Shown piece after piece: positions 5,324-38,041 of a stretch of 38,443 nt of DNA (position 1 is the first letter of the stretch; each line of letters starts with the position of its first letter). Both the position numbers and the translations under genes were made by a program. This DNA is from an uncultured Nitrospiraceae bacterium (GTDB taxonomy: Bacteria; Nitrospirota; Thermodesulfovibrionia; Thermodesulfovibrionales; Dissulfurispiraceae). The stretch covers positions 1 to 38,443 of the forward strand of contig CAMTVO010000016.1 of NCBI GenBank assembly GCA_947085205.1. The letters are read 5' to 3'. The notes beneath the pieces were generated by a model that saw nothing but the letters and a program-made list of their open reading frames with translations, ran no database searches and was not told the DNA's origin.

Positions 5324-8300
5324 ATGGAGAAATTTTTTAATCCAAATATCAGCAGAAGGGCATTTTTGCAGTGGTCAACTGCCATAACGGCAACGCTTAC
5401 GATACCGGGACTTGCATCTGCATCTCCAAAGAGCATTGCTACTGCACTGGAGGAAAGATGGGTGCCTTCAATATGCACCCAATGTAACGGAAGATGTGCA
5501 TTGGCTGTGAGAATTGTCGGCGGCATAGCAGTAAAAATTGAGGGATTGAATGGTCAGAGGCCAGGAATAGCAGGCAATGTTTTGCCGCGTGATCCAATAA
5601 CCAACGGCAAGCTATGCGCAAAGGGCGCCGCAGGGCTTGAGCAGCTTTACAATCCTGACAGGATTAAATATCCGATGGTAAGGGTAGGAGAAAGAGGCTC
5701 CGGCAAATGGAAACGCATAAGCTGGACAGAGGCATATAACAAGATAATTGCAGGGGATAATAATGAAGGGATTGGATGGAAGGGGCTGAGAGATCATCAC
5801 GGCAAGTGGAATACACTTGCAGGCATGTACACAAAGAATGGAGATGCAGACGGAGCTAACCCATCCGATGACCTCAAAAGGTTTCCTGAAACCATGATAA
5901 ACGCCTGGGGCAGACATCAGGCTGACTGGTATCAGGATAGATGGCTTAACTCTTATGGTCATTACCCTTACAGATATCAAAGGTGAGGACTCTGTTACAG
6001 CGGCTTCTTGCAAGCCGCAAGGGTAACTGTCAGTGGTGCTGGAGGCTTCCCGATAACGACTCCTGACGCTGATTATATGAGTAAAGGAGATGTGATTATC
6101 CTTTCAGGGGTGAATGCAATGGTGGCTTCCTATCCGGCAAATCCATTGGCACAGCGCCTCGTTGCTGCTCAGGAAAGGGGCGTAAAACTTGTTGCCGTTG
6201 ACCCTCGCATGTCAGAGACGGCAATAGTCTGCCGCGGAGACAAAGAAAACAATGTCCCGGGCTGGATTGGAATTAAACCCGGAAGCGGCGGCTTAACTGC
6301 ACTGGGAATGCTTAAAGCATTAGCAGAAGGGTCTGTTCCGGGCGTTACTTATGACGAGCTTTCACCGTCAAGAAAAGGCGGACCCGACAGAGGCTATGGA
6401 TTTAACCCTCAAGGATTTGGGAACGAAGAGGCAGCAGATACTCTTTTTGTATCCACCCTTTCAGGTGACCATAAAGCAGGCACAACAACTCTGACTGTAT
6501 CCATTACAGGGAAAGGTGCCTCAACAATAGATAAGGTAAAGAGACTTGTTGGCGCTCAGGCCGGTCTTAACTTTGGCGTTAAAGGCAAGCAGGAGATTGT
6601 GGATGCAATAGCAGTTAAGACAGAAGGCGATAAGGCTGTAATAACAATTGCACAGCCTGCGATGTATTCCCATTCAAGCGGCTCGGTCATCACAGAAGAC
6701 CTTAACCTGAAAGATTACGTGAGAGGGCTTGATTGGAGCCTTATATCCAAAGAAACAGGCACTTCCAGAGAGATTATTACTAACATGGCAAAGATGTTCT
6801 TTGGCGCTGCAAAGGCAGGCAAAAAGGCTGTCTGGGAGTCAAAGCGCGGGGATGCCATGCTCTCCAACGGCCTACAGGCAATAAGGTCTGGGTTATTGCT
6901 CAATGCCTTTGTCCCTGCCAACTTCGATAAAAGGACATTTGGTGTTGAAGGAGGCTGGGCACATTACCATTCAGGCTCACTAAAGGCCCGCCCAAGCATG
7001 GCGAGGCACAGCTTTGAAGGTGGTGATTATTACTACTTCAGACTCTGGTTATTGGAAGATGCGCCTGCAGGCACAAAGACGTTCAAGGTTGGCGCCGGGC
7101 AAGCTAAAAAAATGGCAAAGCTCTTAAAGAGACCTGCTGAATTTTATAGAAAGATTGCATTGAGGAGTTCACCGAGCATAGCAGAGCTTACAGCAGACCA
7201 GAAACTTCCGACCGATGCGCTGATTACCGGGGCAATACTTGCAAAGGCAGGAAGTGTTATTAAGGCAGGCTCTGATATCTTGAAGGACTCTGTTGTCAAG
7301 GATGCAGCCACATGTCCTGCGATTGGCGGAGAGTGGTCAGACGGCTTATTGAAGGCAAAGATGACACTCACTGCTGATGCAACATTAATGAAAGATGTTG
7401 TCCTTGCTGATGGAAGCCTTATTAAAGAAGGCTCTGTGCTTAAAACAGGCTCACATGTATGGGATGCAGGCAATAGGGAGATAATCGGCGGCGCATATAA
7501 ACATGGAGACGGCGGCACAGTAGAGAGCGCTGTGCCGGTTAGTGTTGATGTAAGCGCAGGGACAGTTACATTGGATTTTGAAGGAGGCAAAGGTTCCCGT
7601 TACTTCCATAAGGCAACTACAACAATTAAGTGGGAACTTCCATATCTCATGCACGGACTCCTTCATCACGCATACCCGGTGGCAGAAGAACAGCAGACCC
7701 ACCATGTAATTGCAAATATCGGCAAGGTATTTCCATATGGTGTTTTGATGCAAAAGTATTGCAACTGGGCGCTCTCTTTTCCCGACAACATTGATGTAGT
7801 TAAGGCGCTTAAAGACACAAAGCGAATTCCCTATCACATTGCCGAAGATGTATTTCTCGGGGATGTGAGCGCCTATGCTGATATTCTGCTTCCTGCAGAG
7901 ACATATCTTGAACGATGGGAATATGTCCCGGCATTCTGGATGAGCTATGTGAGAAAGACCAATCTCCGCCAACCTATACTGTTTGACATATCCCATGCGC
8001 GTGCAGGAAAGTTTGTCAACGGCGTGCTCTTTGAGGCAAAGGACTTACGGGATATGTATTATGACATAATCAACATGATAAACTGGGACGGAAGCTATAC
8101 CGGCCCTATACTGAGAGATGGAAAACCTGCAGGTGTAAATGATGGCTGGGCATTTGGGACAAGAACCTATAAATTTGATGACAAAGGCAACATCACGGGC
8201 TGGGATGATTTAGGCAAGGTAGGCCCGCCTGACAGCAATGGCGTAAGGTATGGCCCAAAGGAAAAAGGAGGCAACGGCACAGCAGACCCTTATGGAGCGC

Positions 8301-9631
8301 TTTTCTGGCATAAAAGCAGGTTAAGGGTAATGGGGGCAAGACCTGCTGATGCGCTTTCCGGAGATAGAGGTGCTGCCGACAGCACGCTTTTTCCGCTTGA
8401 TCCGGATATAGGACAAATTATGATGGAGGCAAGCAGGGTATCCTTTGCTGATGCTACAACTGATGAAAAGAGGCTTGAATACATGATGAGCAACGGGGTC
8501 ATTTATAAGACGGACACCGACAAGCTTGCATCAGACCTGACACTTGCGAGTGCTGTAACCACTACAGGAGGCATAGATGCCCTGGATAAATCCAAGCTTG
8601 CAGCAGGCACTATCCTAAAAGCAGGAACTCTCGTTCCCAATCCAGTTGACCAAAAGGCAATAGGAGGAGGTTATTCTGCTAATAGGTTGACCGGAGATAT
8701 TACAGTTCCATCGGATGTAACGATTGCAGGAAGTATTCTCATTGCGCCGGAAAGCATGCTCAAAGAAAAGACCATGCTCAAAGGCGGTTCTTCTGCATGG
8801 AGCGCAAAAGACCGTGCATCTCTGGGAGGTAGGTATGCTCCTGTGAACAAGTTCTCCCTCGGACCTGTGGGTCTGGATGGAAAAATGGGAAAATATAAAG
8901 AAAATCTTGATATTCCTGGCGTTCCCGGAAACAGGACAAAGTCAAAGGCAAATCTCAAGGTTCAGGCATTTGCAGTTACATTGGCAGGTGTTCCAAACCC
9001 TGGACAAAGGAAAATTGAAGATCTTTCAGCAGAGAGAGGCAATACCTGCTATCATGGTCTTCCTGAATGGGAACCTCTTGATGTATCACTTGCCCGACCA
9101 GAAGATGACCTTAGTCTCATTACATTTAAGGCGTCAGTTTATACAAAGACAAGATTGGCTTCCCAGCCGTCCCTTAAAGAGATTATGTGGGAGAATGAGA
9201 TTGTGATTAACCCTGATGATGCGAATAAACGAGGCATAAAGACAGGCGACAAGGTAGTCGTTGAGGCAAGGCAGAGGACGCCAGGCACAACAGAATATCG
9301 CATTGAAAAGGTTGAAGGCCCTGCCAGGGTGACAAAAGGCATCAGACCCGGTGTGGTTGGTATTTGCGGCATGTTCGGACATAAATACGCAGGTAAATTC
9401 AGTGTTGATGGTAAAGCTAACAGACTGGATTCAAAGGCTGCTGCTTGGCCTGTTCAGAAACTTCCTGATGATCTTGACCCCGGCTATAAAGGTGAATATG
9501 TATGGAGCAGATACGACGGACATCAGAACACAGGCATCAACACAAACAAGGTAATCTGGAGCCTTACCGAGCCCATAGGCGGCGGGGCACAGTATCATGG
9601 AACAAAAATTCGTGTCTATAAAAAGGCATAA
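5324..9631 (+). CDS. Tat-exported Mo/W-bisPGD oxidoreductase catalytic subunit (Psr/Phs/Arr/Ttr-like branch); probable selenoprotein of 1435 aa with Sec221
   Basis: RBS AGGAGG; Tat motif SRRAFLQ; CxxCxxxC...C Fe-S motif. ORFs 5324..5986 and 6008..9631 share one frame and are separated only by TGA 5984-5986 (YQR-U-GLCYSG). Also VDPRMSET, YADILLPAETYLERW and a C-terminal molybdopterin-binding domain. Confidence 0.85.
6000..6018 (+). promoter_or_regulatory. Candidate bacterial SECIS element
   Basis: GCGGCTT-CTTGC-AAGCCGC, a perfect 7-bp stem 13 nt after the in-frame TGA; possible lower stem ACTCT/AGGGT. Confidence 0.7.
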
Positions 9632-9646
9632 AGGAGGTGGTAAACA

Positions 9647-10435
9647 ATGACACAATATGTATATGCATATGATTCAAATAGATGTGTTCGCTGCCACGCC
9701 TGCGAGACAGCCTGTAAGATGGAAAATCAGGTTCATGTGGGGCATGGAGCAGGAGCCGCCGAGGGAGGTTATGGCTGGGGCGGACCTGGAGAAAAAGGAC
9801 CAAGATACCGCAGGGTGCGAACATTCGGAGATGGGCCCGGGACATATTTTCTTTCTATGTCCTGCAACCACTGCAGCGACCCTGTGTGCTGGAAGACATG
9901 TCCGCTCAAGGGCAAAGACCTTTTTGATCCAAAGGGTGCGATTTACAAGGAAAAAACAGTTGGCGCTGTCATAATCCAGAACGGAAAATCTGGCACGCCG
10001 AAAATCTGCGATCCTGAAAAAGCAAAGTGCGACAGAATATGTCAGAAGGCATGTCCATATGAGGCTCCTCAGTGGAACCCTGTCACAAAGGTGATGGAGA
10101 AATGCCACCTCTGTGTCCTCACAAGACTCAAAAGACCTGACCCTGATGGAGTTAAAAGACCAGCGTGTGTTGATATCTGCATGGGCAGGGCGCTTCAGAT
10201 AACAGATGAGAGGACAAAACCATACAAACTCGTCAGAAGCAATAAGGGAAGATACAAAGGAAAGACAGCAGATACTGAGGATGGAGGCGCAACAGCCTTT
10301 GTTGAAACAAAGGAAGGGATACCGCCTGATGAGCAGCATCCAGGTGACTTCACTACCGATTTAACAAAGGTCGGCGTTGCACCGCCGGACATCACAAAAC
10401 CGAATACTATCGTGAGACCGAAGGCGATGTGGTAA
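9647..10435 (+). CDS. 4Fe-4S electron-transfer subunit (DmsB/NrfC/PsrB-like)
   Basis: CxxCxxCxxxC, CNHCxxPxCxxxCP, a variant third motif, and KCxxC...PACxxxC; RBS AGGAGG. Confidence 0.9.
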   Translation: MTQYVYAYDSNRCVRCHACETACKMENQVHVGHGAGAAEGGYGWGGPGEKGPRYRRVRTFGDGPGTYFLSMSCNHCSDPVCWKTCPLKGKDLFDPKGAIYKEKTVGAVIIQNGKSGTPKICDPEKAKCDRICQKACPYEAPQWNPVTKVMEKCHLCVLTRLKRPDPDGVKRPACVDICMGRALQITDERTKPYKLVRSNKGRYKGKTADTEDGGATAFVETKEGIPPDEQHPGDFTTDLTKVGVAPPDITKPNTIVRPKAMW

Positions 10436-10493: not shown

Positions 10494-11195
10494 TTGAAGA
10501 CAGATTTTAAGACAGACTGGGAACTTGGAGCAAGGGTTTTTGGTTATAGTTTTCTTTTTAGAGGCTTTTTGGAAGAGCCGACAAAGGATTTTCTTGAGAA
10601 ATTAAAAAATGAGGCTTTTCTGTCTTACTTCCCTTACATAAATGAGAACGATGATATTAAAAATGGTGTTAGATTTGTGGAGTCATACATTAATGAGAGC
10701 TCCTCAATTGAAAAACTTACTGATGAATTAGCAGGCGACTATGCAGGGCTTTTTTTAGGCCCTGGCAAGGTGATAGCTCCTCCGTGGGAATCAGTATATG
10801 TTTCCGGAGGCGGACTCATTTTCCGTGAAGAGACCTTTGAGGTGAGGAAAAGATATGCAAAGCACGGGCTTTTACCTGAAAAGTTAAATAAGGAGCCTGA
10901 TGACCATGTAGGGCTTGAACTGCAATTTATGTATCTGCTTTCTTCAAAAACCATCGATGCCATAGATTCAGGAGACTACAAAAAGGCAAGGGAACTGTTT
11001 CATGATCAGAAAGAATTTCTGGAAGAACATCTGCTTAAATGGTCGCCAAGATTTTCAGACGATATATATCACAATGCAGAGACATCGTTCTATCGTGGAA
11101 TAGCAAGGATACTCAAGGGCTTTGTGACTGAAGATCATGGAAAATTAAATGAATTAAGCGGAATTTTTAATTTTGATACCGTAGACGTTTCATGA
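10494..11195 (+). CDS. TorD/DmsD family maturation chaperone
   Basis: YAGLFLGP, PPWESVY, EPDDHVGLELQFM and HLLKW; TTG start with AGGAGG. Confidence 0.92.
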   Translation: MKTDFKTDWELGARVFGYSFLFRGFLEEPTKDFLEKLKNEAFLSYFPYINENDDIKNGVRFVESYINESSSIEKLTDELAGDYAGLFLGPGKVIAPPWESVYVSGGGLIFREETFEVRKRYAKHGLLPEKLNKEPDDHVGLELQFMYLLSSKTIDAIDSGDYKKARELFHDQKEFLEEHLLKWSPRFSDDIYHNAETSFYRGIARILKGFVTEDHGKLNELSGIFNFDTVDVS

Positions 11196-11239
11196 AATTG
11201 AAGAACTTGAAAGAAACAATGAAATAAATGGAGGTTTTG

Positions 11240-12859
11240 ATGAAAAGGGCGATGATTGTTTTTCTTGTTTTATCGCTGATTTCTCCGTCTTCAGTATTTG
11301 CAATGGAGAAAGACGAGATTCTCAAAAAACTTGAAAATGTTCTTAAAAAGAACGAGGAGCTTTTCAAGGAAGTGGAGCAATTAAAAAGGCAGATGCAGGA
11401 TATAAAGTCAAAAGAGGATACTCAGGACAAAAAAATCTCTGCACAGGAAAAGAAAGTAAAGGATGTGGAAAAGCTTGCGAAAAAGGCAGAAGGCATCTCA
11501 AGGTTTGAGGTTTGGGGAGAATACAGGTTTAAAGCAGACTCTATCCATGCTAATTTTGACCGATTTACCGGATTCAGATGGAATCCGAATGTAACAATGG
11601 GCGGCGCAGCGATAGGCGCTTTCCAGCCTAAACAGTATGAGGAATTCACTGCAAGTGACAATAGCCTCCTGACAAACCGTTTAAGGCTTAAGTTTAAAGT
11701 AAAGGCAACAGATGATGTTGACTTTACAGGACGGCTTGCTATGTATAAGATATGGGGACATCAGACAGCAGCGCCGCTTGAGGGTAACTACGGCGGAAAC
11801 TATGGCTTTATGCCGCAGAATTCAATGCTTTTTGACGGCAACACATCGTATAAGCCTTCAGACAGCGCATTAAAGGTTGACAGGGCATTTGTAAACTGGT
11901 ATGAGCCTGGAGGATTCCCCGGTATAATATCAGTTGGAAGAAGACCTTCCGCAGGCGGTCCGCCTTTACATCTCAAGCAGGGTATTGAGCGGGATGCCAC
12001 GCCTGCAGGCCTCGGTGTTGATTATGCCATGGATGGGCTGGCAATTATATACACGCCTGATATTTCTTCGCTCCCCGGTTTTAAGGCACGCGCATGTTAC
12101 GGCAAGGGATTTGAATCAGGACTCAGAGACAGCAATGTAAACACACTTAAAGATGCAACATTTGCAGGTTTTAATTTTGATATATACGAGAACAGAGAAA
12201 CAGGAACACTTGCGCAGATTAACTTATACAGGGCCTTTAATCTCAATGACCTTCCTGAAAAGGCAACTGCAAATATCGGTGATGTTAACCATGCAACAGC
12301 GCTCTTTATGACAAAGACAGCAGGGCTTGACTGGTTTGCATCAGCAGGGTTGTCAAAAACATATCCAAAGAATGTCTCCGGCTGGAGACCTCGTGTAGAT
12401 ATGAATAGCGACGGCGATGTTGATGATGCTGGAGATGTTACCATGTCTCCCGGCGGGCTCCTTTATGACGAAGGCGGCAATAAAAAGGGACGTTCAGGTT
12501 ATGCTGTTCATGTTGGGACAAGGATTCCTTATGGAAAGAGCAAGTTCGGGCTTGAATATAACTATGGCTCAAAATACTGGGTGAACTTTACCCCTGCGTC
12601 TGACGATATTTACGGCAGCAAACTTGCAACCAAAGGACATGTTGGCGAACTTTACTGGCTCTATGACCTAACCAAAAAACCTGTGTGGAAGCTCAGCAAG
12701 GTGCTCTTCAGGTTGGGCTATCAGCATTATATATTTAATTACAGCGGAAGCGGATTGCTTTTGGGAGAGCCCAAGAAATTGAGCGGTAACCCGTCGCTTC
12801 TGTATCCGTCTCCGAGGACAATGGACAATGTATATGCATCATTTGATGTTCATTTCTAA
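11240..12859 (+). CDS. DUF3373-type outer-membrane porin with N-terminal coiled coil
   Basis: Signal peptide, coiled coil, RLAMYKIWG, SVGRRPS, EYNYGSKYW and a terminal F; start chosen from GGAGG spacing. Confidence 0.75.
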   Translation: MKRAMIVFLVLSLISPSSVFAMEKDEILKKLENVLKKNEELFKEVEQLKRQMQDIKSKEDTQDKKISAQEKKVKDVEKLAKKAEGISRFEVWGEYRFKADSIHANFDRFTGFRWNPNVTMGGAAIGAFQPKQYEEFTASDNSLLTNRLRLKFKVKATDDVDFTGRLAMYKIWGHQTAAPLEGNYGGNYGFMPQNSMLFDGNTSYKPSDSALKVDRAFVNWYEPGGFPGIISVGRRPSAGGPPLHLKQGIERDATPAGLGVDYAMDGLAIIYTPDISSLPGFKARACYGKGFESGLRDSNVNTLKDATFAGFNFDIYENRETGTLAQINLYRAFNLNDLPEKATANIGDVNHATALFMTKTAGLDWFASAGLSKTYPKNVSGWRPRVDMNSDGDVDDAGDVTMSPGGLLYDEGGNKKGRSGYAVHVGTRIPYGKSKFGLEYNYGSKYWVNFTPASDDIYGSKLATKGHVGELYWLYDLTKKPVWKLSKVLFRLGYQHYIFNYSGSGLLLGEPKKLSGNPSLLYPSPRTMDNVYASFDVHF

Positions 12860-12874
12860 AATCATGAGAAAGAG

Positions 12875-13294
12875 GTGAATGAAGTGATATTTGGTTTAGA
12901 GATTAAAAAAGATAACCCTAACATAGTAGTAGAGCAACATGGCAATAGGTCATCAGCGCCACAGCGCTACTGCTCTGCTGCGCTACTGCTCTTCTTTATT
13001 TTCTTTCCTGCGGCTGCCTTTTCATTTGATGTAGAGATAGTGGCAGATCCCTCTTCAGGTGAGGCGCCACTGGAAGTAGAATTCTCAGCAGTAGTTAAGG
13101 CTGGGACCGCAAAAAGTTTCCAATGGGAATTTGGAGATGGTGGAAAGTGCAAAGAGCAAAATTGTAATCATACCTTCAACAGAGGAGGTACATACACAGT
13201 TAAGCTTACTGTTGTGAGTGATGCTGGCGTCACGGTTACCAAAACCATGTCCTTTGAGGTTCAGAGAAGGAAGGGCGGTTGACCGACTGCTTAA
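12875..13294 (+). CDS. Secreted PKD (Ig-like) domain protein; ends at 13282 unless the TGA is read as Sec (…RKGG-U-PTA, stop at 13294)
   Basis: Hydrophobic signal ending AAFS; PKD motifs GEAPLEVEF, WEFGDG and GTYTVKLTV; TGA 13280-13282 followed by a SECIS-like hairpin. The start codon is uncertain. Confidence 0.7.
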
Positions 13295-13312
13295 TCGCAT
13301 CTGGAGATGCGA
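13295..13312 (+). promoter_or_regulatory. Candidate SECIS element of the PKD gene
   Basis: TCGCATC-TGGA-GATGCGA starts 12 nt after the TGA; G is second in the loop; no U-tract follows. Confidence 0.55.
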
Positions 13313-13464
13313 AAAACTGAGTATAAAATAACCGATAAGATGATGAACGACACGATTTAAGCAAAATTATTAGAGGATGAAAAGGCAAAGAAAAGCATTG
13401 ATGACATCTTATGCCTTCGTGAAGGGCATAAGGAATGAGTAACAAACAGAGAAAGGAGGAAGGA

Positions 13465-15861
13465 ATGAGTAACAGTAATCTATCAAGAAGAGATTTTCTG
13501 AAGTATGCAGGTGCAGGTGCAGTTATAGCTGGAATGCCATCAATACTTTATGGCGAAACAAAAGAAAAGGCCCCGAAGCCTTACACAGAAGACGGCATAG
13601 CCCCTGTGCCTGACAAAGTTGTTACAGCAGGCTGTCCGTGGTGTCAGACAGGCTGCAGTATGAAGGTTCATGTAAAGGATGGCAGGATTGTGAATATTTA
13701 TGGCAATCCTGATGACCCTGTGACAGGCGGAAAGCTCTGTCCCAAGGGGCAGGCAAGTATAGGTTTGCTTTATAACAAATACCGCCTGAAGTCGCCATTA
13801 AAACGAATTGGACCAAGGGGCAAGCCAGAATCCTATCAGGAGATAAGCTGGGAACAGGCATTAACAGAGATTGCTGAGAAGTTGAAAATGGTGAAGGAGA
13901 AATACGGACCTGAAGCCTTTGCATGGTGGACTGCCGGTAGGAGCGAATCACAGGCAAGGGCAGGACTTACAGGTACATTTGAAAAACTTTATGGCACACC
14001 GCATCGTGAGGGCACAGGGCCCTTCTGTAACCTTGCAGGAACATCTGCTTCCAACTCTATCTTAGGACACAATAATCCACCATGGATATATACGAGGGAA
14101 GACTTCGGCAACGCAGACTGGTATATGTTTGTCGGCAGCAATTCGGCAGCCTGTAAGACCGTGGCTTTCGGTATGGTAAATGACGAGAGGGTAAAGAGAA
14201 AGATAAGACTCATTGTCGTTGACCCGAGGATGACAGAGACTGCGAGCAGGGCTGATTTGTGGCTTCCCATTAAACCGTCCACAGATATGGCATTGGCGCT
14301 CTCAATGATGTATCACATTATTGAGAAAGACCTGCACAACAAGGAATTCATTGATAAAAAGGTGCTTGGTTTTGACAGGCTCAAGGCATTTCTCTTTGAA
14401 AAAAAATACACGCCTGAATGGGCAGAGAAGGTGACAGGCATTCCGGCAAAGACAATCAAGGGTATTGCTGAAGAATACGCAAAGACAGAGAAGGCGATTA
14501 TCATGGGCAATGCCGGATTGAGTCACCATACAAACGGTCATCTGACCCACAGAGCGTTCTTTATGCTCGCGGCAATAACAGGGCATTTCGGCAAGCCCTC
14601 GATGGGCTATGGATGCGGCAATACAGGGGCTACACCAATGGGAAGCATCTCAGTGCCCCCTGAAAAAGAAGTAAAACCTAAAAAACAGAGGCTCGGGAGG
14701 TCGCCTGCTGCATGGGTTGAGCCGATGATTACAGGAAAGCCTTATCCCATAAAAGCATTCATGTCAACATGCAATCCCCTCGTACAGTGGGGAGACATTG
14801 AAAGGGTAATGACAGCACTGGATAACCTTGATGTCTCGGTATATTACAATATGTTCCCGAGCATTGAGACGCTCTATTTTGACTACATCCTTCCTATCTC
14901 TCCATGGGCTGAATCAGGAGGTGTGGCGCCGGTATCGGATGAGAGGAGGAATGTCTTTGTCCCGCAGATTATTCAACCGTTGCATCAGGCAAAGCCTGAG
15001 AGGTGGATATTTATTGAACTTGGACAGAAGATGGGCTGGGGTGATATTTTTAAGGACGAATACAAAGACCCTGTGGTTTTACAGAGGGCGATGGCAAAAA
15101 AGACAGGCTTTTCGCCTGAACGGTTCTTTGCCAAAAAAGATTACGCCTTAAGAGGCCCCCTCCCCTCTCCTGACGCCCCTGAAATCGGCACACTCTATAC
15201 CGAGGCACACGGAGTGCCGGGCAAAAAGGGACAGTTCCCGAGACCTTCGGGCAAGATAGAGATATGGACGGAAGATTTGGAAAAGGCATATAAGGCTCAA
15301 GGTATAAGTCCTCTGCCTGAATTTTATGTTGACCCGGAGATAGGCATGAAGGATGGGCTTCCCTACCTTGAATATCTTGATGACGATTCATCAGAAGGGG
15401 TCACATCTCAGATGAAAGGGATCGTGGCTGTCGGCAATATGAGGGCGCTCCGCGTAAAGATCAAATACCCCGAGAAACCTGAAATATCAGGCTTTAACAT
15501 GTATCTTACCTCTGGCAGACCCTCTGCATCGCATTTTGGCGACGGCTCACACTGGATATGGAGTCTTAATGAGCAGATGCCTGACCAGTACTGCATGATT
15601 CATCCTGAAAAGGCTAAAGAGACAGGGGTTAAAGACGGCGATATGGTCAAAGTAGAAGGACTGAAAGGCTCTGTTACAGCAAAGGCATGGGTTTACGAAG
15701 GTATAAGGAAGGATACGGTTTTTGTACCGAACACATATTCAGAAAAACAGCCCTTTACCCAGTGGAGGTCATTAAACTTTATTGTTGATAAAAACAAACG
15801 GTGCCCTGTATCAGACCAGATAAACTATAAAGGGCTGATATGCAGGGTCACAAAGGCATAA
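13465..15861 (+). CDS. Second Tat-exported Mo/W-bisPGD oxidoreductase catalytic subunit (Cys ligand)
   Basis: RBS AGGAGG; SRRDFLK; CPWCQTGC...LCPKG; YGTPHREGTGPFC; VDPRMTET; YPIKA; C-terminal domain IV. Confidence 0.92.
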   Translation: MSNSNLSRRDFLKYAGAGAVIAGMPSILYGETKEKAPKPYTEDGIAPVPDKVVTAGCPWCQTGCSMKVHVKDGRIVNIYGNPDDPVTGGKLCPKGQASIGLLYNKYRLKSPLKRIGPRGKPESYQEISWEQALTEIAEKLKMVKEKYGPEAFAWWTAGRSESQARAGLTGTFEKLYGTPHREGTGPFCNLAGTSASNSILGHNNPPWIYTREDFGNADWYMFVGSNSAACKTVAFGMVNDERVKRKIRLIVVDPRMTETASRADLWLPIKPSTDMALALSMMYHIIEKDLHNKEFIDKKVLGFDRLKAFLFEKKYTPEWAEKVTGIPAKTIKGIAEEYAKTEKAIIMGNAGLSHHTNGHLTHRAFFMLAAITGHFGKPSMGYGCGNTGATPMGSISVPPEKEVKPKKQRLGRSPAAWVEPMITGKPYPIKAFMSTCNPLVQWGDIERVMTALDNLDVSVYYNMFPSIETLYFDYILPISPWAESGGVAPVSDERRNVFVPQIIQPLHQAKPERWIFIELGQKMGWGDIFKDEYKDPVVLQRAMAKKTGFSPERFFAKKDYALRGPLPSPDAPEIGTLYTEAHGVPGKKGQFPRPSGKIEIWTEDLEKAYKAQGISPLPEFYVDPEIGMKDGLPYLEYLDDDSSEGVTSQMKGIVAVGNMRALRVKIKYPEKPEISGFNMYLTSGRPSASHFGDGSHWIWSLNEQMPDQYCMIHPEKAKETGVKDGDMVKVEGLKGSVTAKAWVYEGIRKDTVFVPNTYSEKQPFTQWRSLNFIVDKNKRCPVSDQINYKGLICRVTKA

Positions 15862-15879: not shown

Positions 15880-16413
15880 ATGAGTCAGTATTCAATAATG
15901 GTTGATACAGAGAGGTGCATTGGCTGCAAGTCATGTGAAACTGCCTGCAAGCTGGAAAACGGCATACCAGCAGGCAGATACAGGATAAAGAACCTTTGGA
16001 TAAACCCTCAGGGAGGCAAAAGGCTTGATTTTATGACCATGCCTTGCATGCACTGCGAAAAGCCTGCATGTGCTGCTTCATGTCCTGTAAAGGCTATTTC
16101 AAAGCGAAAAGAGGACGGTATTGTTTTGATAGACAAGAAAAAGTGTAATGGGTGCCAGTACTGTGTCCATGCCTGTCCTTACGGAGCTATTAACTTTGAT
16201 GCAGAAAAAAAGGTTGCGGACAAATGCACATATTGTCTGCACAGGCTTCAGAGAGGCGAGGAGCCTGCCTGCGTGTCCAAATGTTCTGGACATGCGTTAA
16301 GCCTTGGCAAAAAAGATGACCTCATTGCAAAGGCGAAATCTGGCGGTCGGAAAACAAGGGACATCAATAAATTCGGTATAAACCCATCAACATTTTATTT
16401 AGAGAGGGTATGA
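15880..16413 (+). CDS. 4Fe-4S electron-transfer subunit (DmsB/NrfC-like)
   Basis: Four canonical Cys clusters (CIGCKSCETAC, CMHCEKPACAASCP, CNGCQYCVHACP, KCTYC..PACVSKC). Confidence 0.93.
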   Translation: MSQYSIMVDTERCIGCKSCETACKLENGIPAGRYRIKNLWINPQGGKRLDFMTMPCMHCEKPACAASCPVKAISKRKEDGIVLIDKKKCNGCQYCVHACPYGAINFDAEKKVADKCTYCLHRLQRGEEPACVSKCSGHALSLGKKDDLIAKAKSGGRKTRDINKFGINPSTFYLERV

Positions 16414-16862
16414 CCATGAAAAAGCGCAAAGTTCAAGGTTCAAAGTTAAAAGTTAAAAGTTTTTTCAAAAAACTGTTCACTGTTCACTGTTCACTGTTCA
16501 CTGTTTTCTTCCTGTTCACTGTCGTTGATGCGGATGCCTCGGAAAAGGCAAAGAAATATCCTAACTGGTATGAGATGCACATTAAGCAGGGCATAATTAA
16601 AGAAGATGGAAGCGGCGCTGCACAGGGTGTTGCAGGGGATGCAATTATGCGTGCAATACAGGCTCGGCGTGTGGATGGCTTGAATCCGCAGGTCTGTGTT
16701 GGCTGCCACAGCAAAGGCGGTCCAGGGACATGGCTCTATGGAAATCCCAAATATATGCAGGTGAAATGGACGCCTGCTAAAAAGTATAAAAAGACAGCAG
16801 CCGATAGAGTTGAGGTGAAAAGGCCGTATATAAGTGGTATAAAGGTTAGTGAAGACCAATAG
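16410..16862 (+). CDS. Small exported protein with one CxxCH (putative monoheme cytochrome c)
   Basis: Signal peptide ending ADA; CVGCH; translationally coupled on both sides. Confidence 0.6.
   Translation: MTMKKRKVQGSKLKVKSFFKKLFTVHCSLFTVFFLFTVVDADASEKAKKYPNWYEMHIKQGIIKEDGSGAAQGVAGDAIMRAIQARRVDGLNPQVCVGCHSKGGPGTWLYGNPKYMQVKWTPAKKYKKTAADRVEVKRPYISGIKVSEDQ
16427..16506. repeat. Heptamer tandem repeats (MAARGTT)x5 and (ACTGTTC)x5
   Basis: Read directly at 16427-16461 and 16472-16506. Confidence 0.85.
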
Positions 16863-17463
16863 CAAAATACTGCCTGCTGATATATTTGCCCAGTTGAGCG
16901 AATTTTTCAAGGAGCCTACAGAGGAATTTGCAGAGGATGTGTCCTCTGGGAGGCTCCTTGAGTTCTTTCAGACAGTCTTTGAAAGTTTCGGAATAGATGA
17001 CACACCGGTTTTAGATGGCGTAAAGGTCGAAGGGGATGTTTTCACTGTTCTCAAGGAAGAGTATAAAAGGCTTTTTGTTGGTCCCTTGCCCCTCTATATT
17101 GTACCTGTTGAGAGCGTTTATAAAGTCTGGACTTCAGACCCTGAATGTAAGCTGCCCATTGCAGCAGAAAAAGGCTATCTGATGGGGGACCCTGCGATAG
17201 ATATGATAAAGAGGTATCAAGAACAGGGAATTGTAATACCTGATAAATATTCCTCTATGCCTGACCACATTGCCCTTGAGCTGGAATATATGGCATTTTT
17301 GCTAACCAACGGTGATGAGGAAAATCAGAAAGAGTTCATGGCTTCTCATCTTGACTGGCTGGATGAACTTGCAGAGGATATCAAGAATTTTAAAATGGGC
17401 AGCAGCTTTTATTCCGCAGGTGCAGAAGTAACTGCTCTCATCGTTTCTCAATGTATTAAATAA
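16849..17463 (+). CDS. Second TorD/DmsD family chaperone
   Basis: EYKRLFVGP, PVESVY, PDHIALELEYM and HLDW. Confidence 0.9.
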   Translation: MKTNSKILPADIFAQLSEFFKEPTEEFAEDVSSGRLLEFFQTVFESFGIDDTPVLDGVKVEGDVFTVLKEEYKRLFVGPLPLYIVPVESVYKVWTSDPECKLPIAAEKGYLMGDPAIDMIKRYQEQGIVIPDKYSSMPDHIALELEYMAFLLTNGDEENQKEFMASHLDWLDELAEDIKNFKMGSSFYSAGAEVTALIVSQCIK

Positions 17464-17473
17464 ATATAATCAG

Positions 17474-18538
17474 CCATTCAAGAGAGGGCACGCATGTTAT
17501 TCAAACGCAACGCACCTTGTCATTGCGGATGATAAACATAAAAACAACAGGAAATTCCTGAGAATGAATGATATTGACCCCGCTTTGACAGGCGATGCAG
17601 GAAATGCCTTTGTCGTTCTCTCAAAGGACACTATACCTGTTGCCTTTGATAAGGCTGAAGAGGCTGCGCTCGATGCAGATACGCCAATAAAGGATTCTGC
17701 CGGAAAGGAGATAAAGGTAAAGACCTCTTTCTGCCTTATGAAGGAAGGCGTGATGGAGCACACCATTGATGAGTATGCAAAACTGGCAGGAGTTGAAAAG
17801 TCGCAGATTGAAAAGGCTGTAAAGGAGTTCACCTCCTATGGCACAAGGGCTGCTGTTACACAGTATCACGGCGCAGGGAATTATATAAGCGGAACCTATG
17901 CATCCTATCCTGTGGCAGTTCTCAATGCGATGGTTGGAAATGTTGACCGGAAGGGAGGATACATGATAGGCGGAGGCGGCGCAGCCGCATGGAACACCGG
18001 CATGTATGACCTCAAGGAATTCGCAGGCAAGAGAAAACTGCAGGGGCCGATTATCACAAGAGAGAAGTTCGCCACACCCCATGCGCCTACCCTCAAGTTT
18101 GCAGGAGTGCGCACCCCGACCATTGAGCCACTTACAGGCACAACATCTGATGGCAGACCGTTCTCTGAAGAGACATTCTTAATTGATGTCGCAAAGGCGG
18201 CAGGACTGCCCGGCTTCGGAGACAATGCCATCAAAGGTAAGGATGGAAAGATGTATCCGCTCAACAAAGCTGAAGGCTACTACCTAAGGGCTATCGCCAA
18301 TGTTGCAACAGGCGCAAAGGTTTCTCAGGCATCTCAGGAGGAGATAGACTTTGTCGAAAGGAACTACCCTGTTGCAAAACACAAGGACATGCTTCCAGAA
18401 AGCGAATGGAAACAGGTCTGTTATGTGCTTGCGAGGGGCGGGGTTTTTGACAAGAGCTACGAAGATGTGTTTGACGGTGAAAAGCACAAATTGCCTTTAC
18501 TTTTAATCGATTTTTCCTGTATTCTTAAAAATCCGTGA
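17474..18538 (+). pseudogene. ttrA: Internal fragment of a tetrathionate reductase subunit A-like gene
   Basis: The frame is open upstream of the called Met (YSNATHLVI) and contains KEFTSYGTRAAV, LNAMVGNVDRKGG, PGFGDNAI and LARGG. There is no Tat/Fe-S N-terminus, no RBS and no C-terminal domain. Confidence 0.75.
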
Positions 18539-37819: not shown

Positions 37820-38041
37820 TCAGACCCCTCAAGAGCCTCCATAGCCGATAGTCACATTGCCGCCTTCTATAATGACAGGCACTTTACGGACGCCGTTTGA
37901 ATGCTTCAGCATCTCATCCAGCTTTGCGCTGTCTGCCTTTACATCAAAGTATTTTGACTTATCGCCATAGACCGACAGGGCCTTTTCTGTGAACGGTCAA
38001 CCGGCCTTTCCATAAATTATTACTTTATCTGAACCCGACAT
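37820..38041 (-). CDS. Uxx-star type glutaredoxin-like selenoprotein with two Sec (missed by the ORF track)
   Basis: MSGSDKVIIYGKAG-U-PFTEKALSVYGDKSKYFDVKADSAKLDEMLKHSNGVRKVPVIIEGGNVTIGYGGS-U-GV-stop. RBS AGGAGG; TGA at 37997-37999 and 37829-37831; glutaredoxin cis-Pro motif KVPVI. Confidence 0.88.

Follow-up and report, generated by a model that had tools for sequence, protein, structure and literature searches.

A PKD-domain protein with a candidate C-terminal selenocysteine arm is encoded between a presumed porin and a molybdenum enzyme in Thermodesulfovibrionia

Analysis of a 38,443-nt stretch of DNA (the window; its genome is referred to as G000) revealed a small PKD-domain gene, PKD-U, whose annotated stop codon appears to encode selenocysteine (Sec). 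Read-through at this TGA (13280-13282) is strongly supported by comparison with homologs, and the protein very probably represents a selenoprotein family not yet catalogued, one that resembles SoxY in its build but does not belong to the SoxY family. We further propose, tentatively and at just under even chances for the chain as a whole, that this uncatalogued selenoprotein uses a flexible RRKGG-Sec-PTA arm to carry sulfane sulfur, and possibly selenium, from a channel to a molybdenum enzyme. The gene and its 3' end comprise the following features:

12875..13294 (+): PKD-U gene with the TGA read through; predicted signal region, single PKD domain, tail RRKGG-U-PTA, stop TAA at 13292-13294
13280..13282 (+): TGA proposed to be read as Sec; TGC or Cys in homologs, from homolog comparison
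13283..13291 (+): Pro-Thr-Ala codons CCG-ACT-GCT, 3' of the TGA; only synonymous differences among the window, G013, L103, and L104
13295..13312 (+): SECIS-like hairpin TCGCATC/TGGA/GATGCGA with a 7-bp stem and G at +21 (13303); noncoding, 3' of the TAA

The ORF at 12875-13282 (+) encodes the C-terminal residues FEVQRRKGG directly before the TGA. The gene end, FEVQRRKGG-TGA-CCG-ACT-GCT-TAA followed by a hairpin, is exactly as an earlier sequence-only reading of this DNA had described it. The start is ambiguous (GTG at 12875 or GTG at 12884); database protein P0006 begins at 12884. Reads of the source run contained no alternative letter at the TGA at a depth of 142, and a contig from a second study was identical to the window over 13148-13301, including the TGA. 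Thus, the codon is not an assembly error. The earlier reading had also expected gene callers to hide the Sec tail. Indeed, database entries P0001, P0006, and P0054 are truncated at GG.

The PKD-U protein matched the Pfam profiles PKD_4 (E = 2e-15) and PKD (E = 3e-14), both above the gathering score, with the domain spanning approximately 13022-13264. NCBIfam (June 2026) contained no model for the protein and yielded no family above cut-off. In an AlphaFold model, the pLDDT was 93-98 across residues 1-80 and 64 across the tail. A PKD β-sandwich is thus predicted with confidence, and the low value of the tail suggests a mobile C-terminal arm. Based on a hydrophobic stretch and an A/S-F junction common to homologs, the protein is predicted to be secreted or periplasmic. 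The signal region (12875-13021) is freely variable: the near-identical strain represented by P0001 has the same mature domain and an unrelated N-terminus.

The hairpin begins 12 nt past the TGA and consists of TCGCATC (13295-13301), the loop TGGA (13302-13305), and GATGCGA (13306-13312). The 51 nt from the TGA had a minimum free energy (MFE) of −11.6 kcal/mol (z = −3.3), equalled by 2 of 200 shuffled sequences, and no terminator-like site was found within 12800-13500. The published model of bacterial SECIS elements (bSECIS) specifies a loop of 3-9 nt, a stem of 4-16 bp, and a position 16-37 nt from the UGA, with G within the first two loop positions and an MFE of −7.5 or lower (PMC13188914). 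The PKD-U hairpin satisfies all four structural constraints (loop of 4, stem of 7, G second, spacing of 19), and its energy of −9.5 to −11.6 kcal/mol is inside the limit.

Chance levels were computed within G000, where the pass rate depends on the rule used: our own coding of the loose bSECIS rule was passed by 104 of 1255 TAA/TAG ORF ends (8%), a perfect 7-bp stem with G at +19 to +23 by 7 of 1139 such ends, and the strictest hairpin rule by 2 of 1256 ends. With this 8% pass rate among ordinary ends, the hairpin by itself is suggestive and the decision falls to the homologs. Applied to 1642 ORF ends of G000, a simple hairpin rule selected 7 of the 499 TGA ends. These were PKD-U, three recognizable selenoproteins that we take from catalogue motifs to be a formate dehydrogenase, a YeeE/YedE-like protein, and a rhodanese-like protein, one new candidate, and two likely chance matches.

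The window contains one more gene with a hairpin of this kind, which is absent from the standard ORF list:

38041..37820 (−): UXX-star family 1 selenoprotein gene with two TGA codons, assigned by NF041114

This gene, which had been recognized from the letters, is real: it scored 105 bits against the NF041114 cut-off of 72. Its hairpin is similar to that of PKD-U, as claimed, although it lies 2 nt closer, with a 9-nt spacer, an 8-bp stem, the loop AGTT, and G at +19.

A profile search with PKD-U yielded 95 proteins, with a top group of nine at E <= 5e-35 and the next match at 4e-18. Five of these nine close clusters (P0002, P0053, P0055, P0056, and P0058) end in K-G-G-C-P-T-A or K-D-G-C-P-T-A; the other four (P0001, P0054, P0057, and P0059) are annotated as ending at GG. 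In a tree built on the mature domains, with the tail excluded, the Cys and truncated states interleave. Specifically, P0058 (Cys) and P0059 (truncated) are sisters (98/96), as are P0001 (truncated) and P0002 (Cys) (83/74); the remaining branching lacks resolution.

DNA was available for four syntenic loci of this group, subfamily A, and in each the PKD gene lies directly 3' of a DUF3373 gene. The site is TGA in the window and in G013, which belongs to another genus of the same family, and TGC in the metagenome loci L103 and L104; PTA-TAA comes next in all four. Locus L106 is identical to that of G013. Two synonymous and no non-synonymous changes separate the PTA codons of the window from those of G013, and the hairpin arms are identical at 14 of 14 positions. 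The loop changes from TGGA to AGGC, with GG retained at +21/+22. Four-fold sites of the same pair differ at 13 of 22 positions in the PKD gene and at 103 of 169 in the DUF3373 gene (about 60%). A short contig from run X6 matches 13271-13300 exactly, so the TGA is present there too; its upstream part is diverged and of the P0058/P0059 type.

Based on these loci, read-through held up by the comparison that the sequence-only reading had proposed: the site carries TGA or Cys, TAA or TAG occurs there in no DNA-level homolog, and the hairpin is conserved. The hairpin arms are also retained in the Cys loci (14 of 14 bases in L104 and 13 of 14 in L103), so that a second role for the hairpin is possible, or the switches may be recent. 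Since Cys replaces Sec in five of the nine close clusters, selenium seems to be an optional improvement on an arm that can work with a thiol. For the same reason, selenium as the cargo found no support; it more likely serves as a better nucleophile.

The weaker matches of the first genome search led to a sister group, subfamily B, of small PKD proteins that are 20-34% identical to that of the window and are encoded directly 3' of a predicted porin (Alginate_exp match). A joint profile of both subfamilies matched 16 of 390 class genomes, with a single TGA at the aligned site in 15; G191 has Ala at this site. Among genomes left out of the building of the joint profile, the TGA was present in 6 of 6. 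In subfamily B, 3-4 residues lie between the TGA and a Cys, after which comes a short tail. Where the residues after the TGA are S-S-S-C, third codon positions hold 25 of 40 pairwise differences, as against 59 of 174, with no concentration, in the G-G-F-F-C group, which is more diverged. Of the 46 B-type database proteins, 42 stop at the Gly that precedes the site, 2 terminate in SSA, and 2 read through with Ala/Val and have the downstream Cys; none has Cys at the U site. Directly 3' of the subfamily B PKD-U genes (L111-L117 and L119; e.g., L112:6888-7889) are genes for FecR+PKD proteins of about 320 aa with a C-x-C-stop ending. The related locus G083 lacks a small PKD gene of its own.

When 17 sequences from both subfamilies were aligned without gaps, G at +21 (17/17) was the sole invariant column after the codon. 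This position is a third codon position in subfamily B, and the background frequency of G is 242 of 1256 ends. Fourteen of the 17 sequences fold into a loop that begins at +19 to +23 and has G in, or adjacent to, its first position, and our SECIS coding was passed by just 5 of 13 subfamily B hairpins. The covariation that the sequence-only reading had looked to was not found in a fixed register across the 17 sequences: 50% of cells were paired versus 46% in shuffled controls, and a consensus fold was absent. The hairpin arms are invariant inside subfamily A, and the pairing register slides between subfamilies.

The genome carries selA, selB, and selD above cut-off as well as tRNA-Sec, and its selD itself contains an in-frame TGA. 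As selA is nearly universal in the class (117 of 121 genomes), co-occurrence is non-discriminating; the machinery permits Sec and does not indicate it. A secreted-looking FecR-domain protein of G000 (C10:64103-65926, −; counterpart at L180:6065-7927) is a candidate uncatalogued selenoprotein: its end reads ILP-TGA-LSC and continues to a stop 13 codons on, with a 9-bp hairpin and G at +22. An Fe-S subunit gene of genome G245 (L116:12422-12685, −) has a TGA in frame within PCMH-U-GKPAC.

The genes around PKD-U in the window are as follows:

5324..9631 (+): MoA1, Tat-type molybdopterin enzyme of 1435 aa if TGA 5984-5986 is read as Sec; U-x-x-C motif
9647..10435 (+): 4Fe-4S subunit, DmsB/TtrB-like, from family matches
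10494..11195 (+): TorD/DmsD-like chaperone, from family matches
11228..12859 (+): DUF3373 protein, presumed outer-membrane porin; Pfam assignment, directly upstream in all four subfamily A DNA loci
13435..15861 (+): MoA2, second Tat molybdopterin enzyme; best match PhsA, far below cut-off
15880-16413 (+): Fe-S subunit, from family matches
16410-16862 (+): 150-aa protein without family match
16849-17463 (+): TorD-like chaperone, from family matches
17459..18538 (+): TtrA-like gene remnant, internally deleted; 80-92% identical to parts of the intact G013 gene

The order in the window is MoA1, Fe-S subunit, TorD, DUF3373, PKD-U, MoA2, Fe-S subunit, the protein without a family, TorD, and the TtrA remnant. 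The PKD gene is thus placed as the sequence-only reading had it, between a porin and a molybdenum enzyme, where the porin is presumably the DUF3373 protein, to which Pfam gives the name DUF3373 alone. A porin, a molybdenum enzyme, an Fe-S subunit, and TorD were present in all loci examined. The enzyme 3' of the PKD gene differs among loci; the upstream molybdenum enzyme is the steady companion. In G013 and L104, the genes after PKD-U/C encode a second PKD protein (PKD2), an Fe-S subunit, and a TtrA-like protein whose gene is intact. G013 continues with selD, TauE, and DsrH/TusB genes, and G031 with selD and a TauE-like gene. Subfamily B loci contain a molybdenum enzyme of ~1000 aa, Fe-S proteins, TorD, a cytochrome-like protein, the porin, and PKD-U, then the FecR+PKD protein (C-x-C end) and MoA2-like or TtrA-like genes. 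The second PKD gene of the G013 locus is missing from G000. Together with the TtrA remnant, this loss suggests that the MoA2 module took the place of an older downstream module in the window. A contig from run X1 has 30 additional bases at 13429, which amount to one more copy of a short repeat at the start of MoA2.

The TGA of MoA1 (5984-5986) sits in R-U-G-L-C, and the two ORFs called on either side of it form one enzyme. Among 14 related upstream enzymes, six have U-S-R-C (TGA) and eight have C-S/D-R-C. The Cys of the U-x-x-C motif, which is the second Cys in the C-S/D-R-C enzymes, aligns with a conserved Cys of the TtrA-like protein, and the U is three residues before it. The TtrA and PsrA lineages are described as having a Cys ligand (PMC10100899). 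From the alignment, we infer that the Cys of the MoA1 U-x-x-C is the molybdenum ligand. The MoA1 hairpin has G at +24 and fails our SECIS coding. All matches of the molybdenum enzymes (PhsA, TtrA, and ArrA models) were far below the family cut-offs.

The comparison with SoxY drawn from the sequence stood as an analogy and fell as a family assignment. In SoxY, an inert scaffold bears one exposed chalcogen residue behind Gly-Gly (PMC5336275). PKD-U has a predicted Ig-like β-sandwich and a Gly-rich C-terminal tail of low confidence (pLDDT 64) that contains GG-U/C. Membership of the SoxY family was considered and ruled out: with PF13501, 10 PKD-U family members matched no SoxY family at E <= 1, and profile matches to SoxY and SoxZ were absent from all five genomes searched (about 90-100% complete), with a positive Thermus control.

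If Sec is present, we give about even chances to a carrier role, in which the arm would covalently bind sulfane-type species at the channel and take them to the molybdenum enzyme. A carrier role is suggested because a single exposed chalcogen after Gly-Gly on an inert scaffold is the SoxY design, because the neighbours are sulfur/selenium-type molybdenum enzymes and sulfur-handling genes, and because the enzyme that regularly accompanies PKD-U bears, next to its molybdenum ligand, an additional U/C that would be able to accept a sulfane atom. In the proposed mechanism, SelB would bind the hairpin 12 nt past the UGA and insert Sec, and the UAA three codons later would end translation. PKD-U would be exported and would fold as the predicted PKD β-sandwich. 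The terminal selenol or thiol would attack the S-S or S-Se bond of a channel-borne polysulfide, thiosulfate, or tetrathionate, and basic residues of the tail may assist anion binding. The loaded arm would then enter the active-site funnel of MoA1 and be unloaded beside the U/C-x-x-C next to the molybdenum ligand. A broader version, which we hold more loosely, is a chalcogen relay of the Thermodesulfovibrionia in which the porin feeds the Sec-armed PKD protein and the arm passes selenium or sulfane sulfur to an enzyme of the DMSO-reductase family, which has a Sec of its own three residues ahead of the Cys that ligates molybdenum. Such a relay would represent an independent invention of a SoxY-like carrier, built on a PKD scaffold, for reductive molybdenum chemistry, with two uncatalogued selenoprotein families in a single operon.

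The arm of the selenoprotein could also make a redox contact or a covalent tether in place of carrying substrate, which we regard as unlikely. Its partner would be its own downstream Cys (U-x3/4-C in subfamily B), the C-x-C tail of the FecR-PKD protein, or the U-x-x-C of the molybdenum enzyme, and the resulting Se-S bond would anchor a complex of porin and enzyme or restore its activity. Binding is the general role of PKD domains, and the top structural matches of PKD-U fit such a role. The subfamily B genes point the same way: all 13 with the TGA have a Cys 4-5 residues on, this Cys is kept when the U is lost (G191, P0020, and P0021), and the next gene encodes the FecR+PKD protein with its C-x-C-stop. 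However, in the subfamily of the window the tail contains one U/C and no Cys to pair with it, and the neighbouring PKD2 lacks a Cys tail and does not occur in G000. Alternatively, the terminal selenol may bind a soft metal or metalloid (As, Sb, Hg, or Cu) for delivery to, or protection of, the molybdenum enzymes. The sub-cut-off matches of these enzymes to the PhsA, TtrA, and ArrA models are consistent with this possibility, as such lineages include arsenate and selenate reductases (PMC10100899), and terminal C-U tails are known from metal-related selenoprotein operons such as SaoC (PMC13188914). We nevertheless consider it improbable, as one ligand makes a weak metal site and the loci read contain no metal-resistance genes, their neighbours handling sulfur or selenium (selD, TauE, and DsrH).

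By contrast with these readings, the TGA might simply terminate translation, or have arisen repeatedly by nonsense mutation of a Cys codon, with the hairpin acting in mRNA stability or processing. A single change separates TGC from TGA, the hairpin is still present in the Cys lineages, and the loose SECIS rule admits 8% of ordinary ends, all of which would agree with a stop. It is nonetheless very unlikely given the homologs: the site is TGA in 15 of 16 genomes and TAA or TAG in none, though TGA accounts for about 500 of 1642 stops in G000 (kin are not independent). Moreover, the codons 3' of the TGA change synonymously, as in the S-S-S-C group, G at +21 is invariant, and the Cys homologs bear an identical PTA tail.

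The favoured reading, a Sec-armed PKD carrier, was compared with other known proteins. UXX-star, KCU-star, and SaoC resemble PKD-U in having Sec a few residues before the stop and a SECIS that extends into the 3' spacer, and in being usually truncated by gene callers (PMC13188914). Unlike PKD-U, none of them belongs to the PKD proteins, and UXX-star family 1 resembles glutaredoxin. Ordinary PKD proteins (collagenase, S-layer, and PrtV modules) share its sequence profile and fold, but PKD-U consists of one such domain on its own, bears a conserved chalcogen tail, and is encoded in a respiratory operon. The 2026 catalogue of 119 prokaryotic selenoprotein families contains no PKD, FecR, or non-Fdh/Fwd molybdopterin-enzyme entry (PMC13188914). 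Nothing on a PKD selenoprotein was found in the literature covered. PKD-U would add a selenoprotein family whose scaffold, PKD, is non-redox, and every database entry examined that carries the TGA is truncated. The same operon would add a second uncatalogued candidate, a non-formate-dehydrogenase molybdenum enzyme with U-x-x-C. Because natural Cys variants of this 90-residue protein exist, the carrier model can be tested directly, with no need to express a selenoprotein.

The route by which sulfane species pass the outer membrane and arrive at periplasmic reductases is a stated open question in PMC13510729, which also leaves further periplasmic sulfur-transfer components possible. According to PMC5877670 and PMC13510729, extHIJKL of Geobacter, linked to sulfur/selenium species, encodes the porin ExtI, the small periplasmic ExtJ, and the selenoenzyme ExtKL/MccSep. 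The loci described here resemble it in a presumed porin, a small, predicted periplasmic protein, and a candidate Sec-containing terminal enzyme. However, the Geobacter enzyme is a multiheme cytochrome, whereas here it is a molybdoenzyme and the small protein would itself carry Sec. The ExtJ model (NF040942) matched neither the PKD protein of the window nor 12 aligned members at E <= 0.1. Its weak matches, below cut-off (E = 1.7e-4 and 5e-3), were to GC-ending neighbours of other DUF3373 genes. Among the 30 DUF3373 loci listed, several such genes have small neighbours that look secreted and end in GC or CSGI (L081:745-1059, L092:1056-1382, L100, L085, and L086), and two of the five tested gave the weak ExtJ matches.
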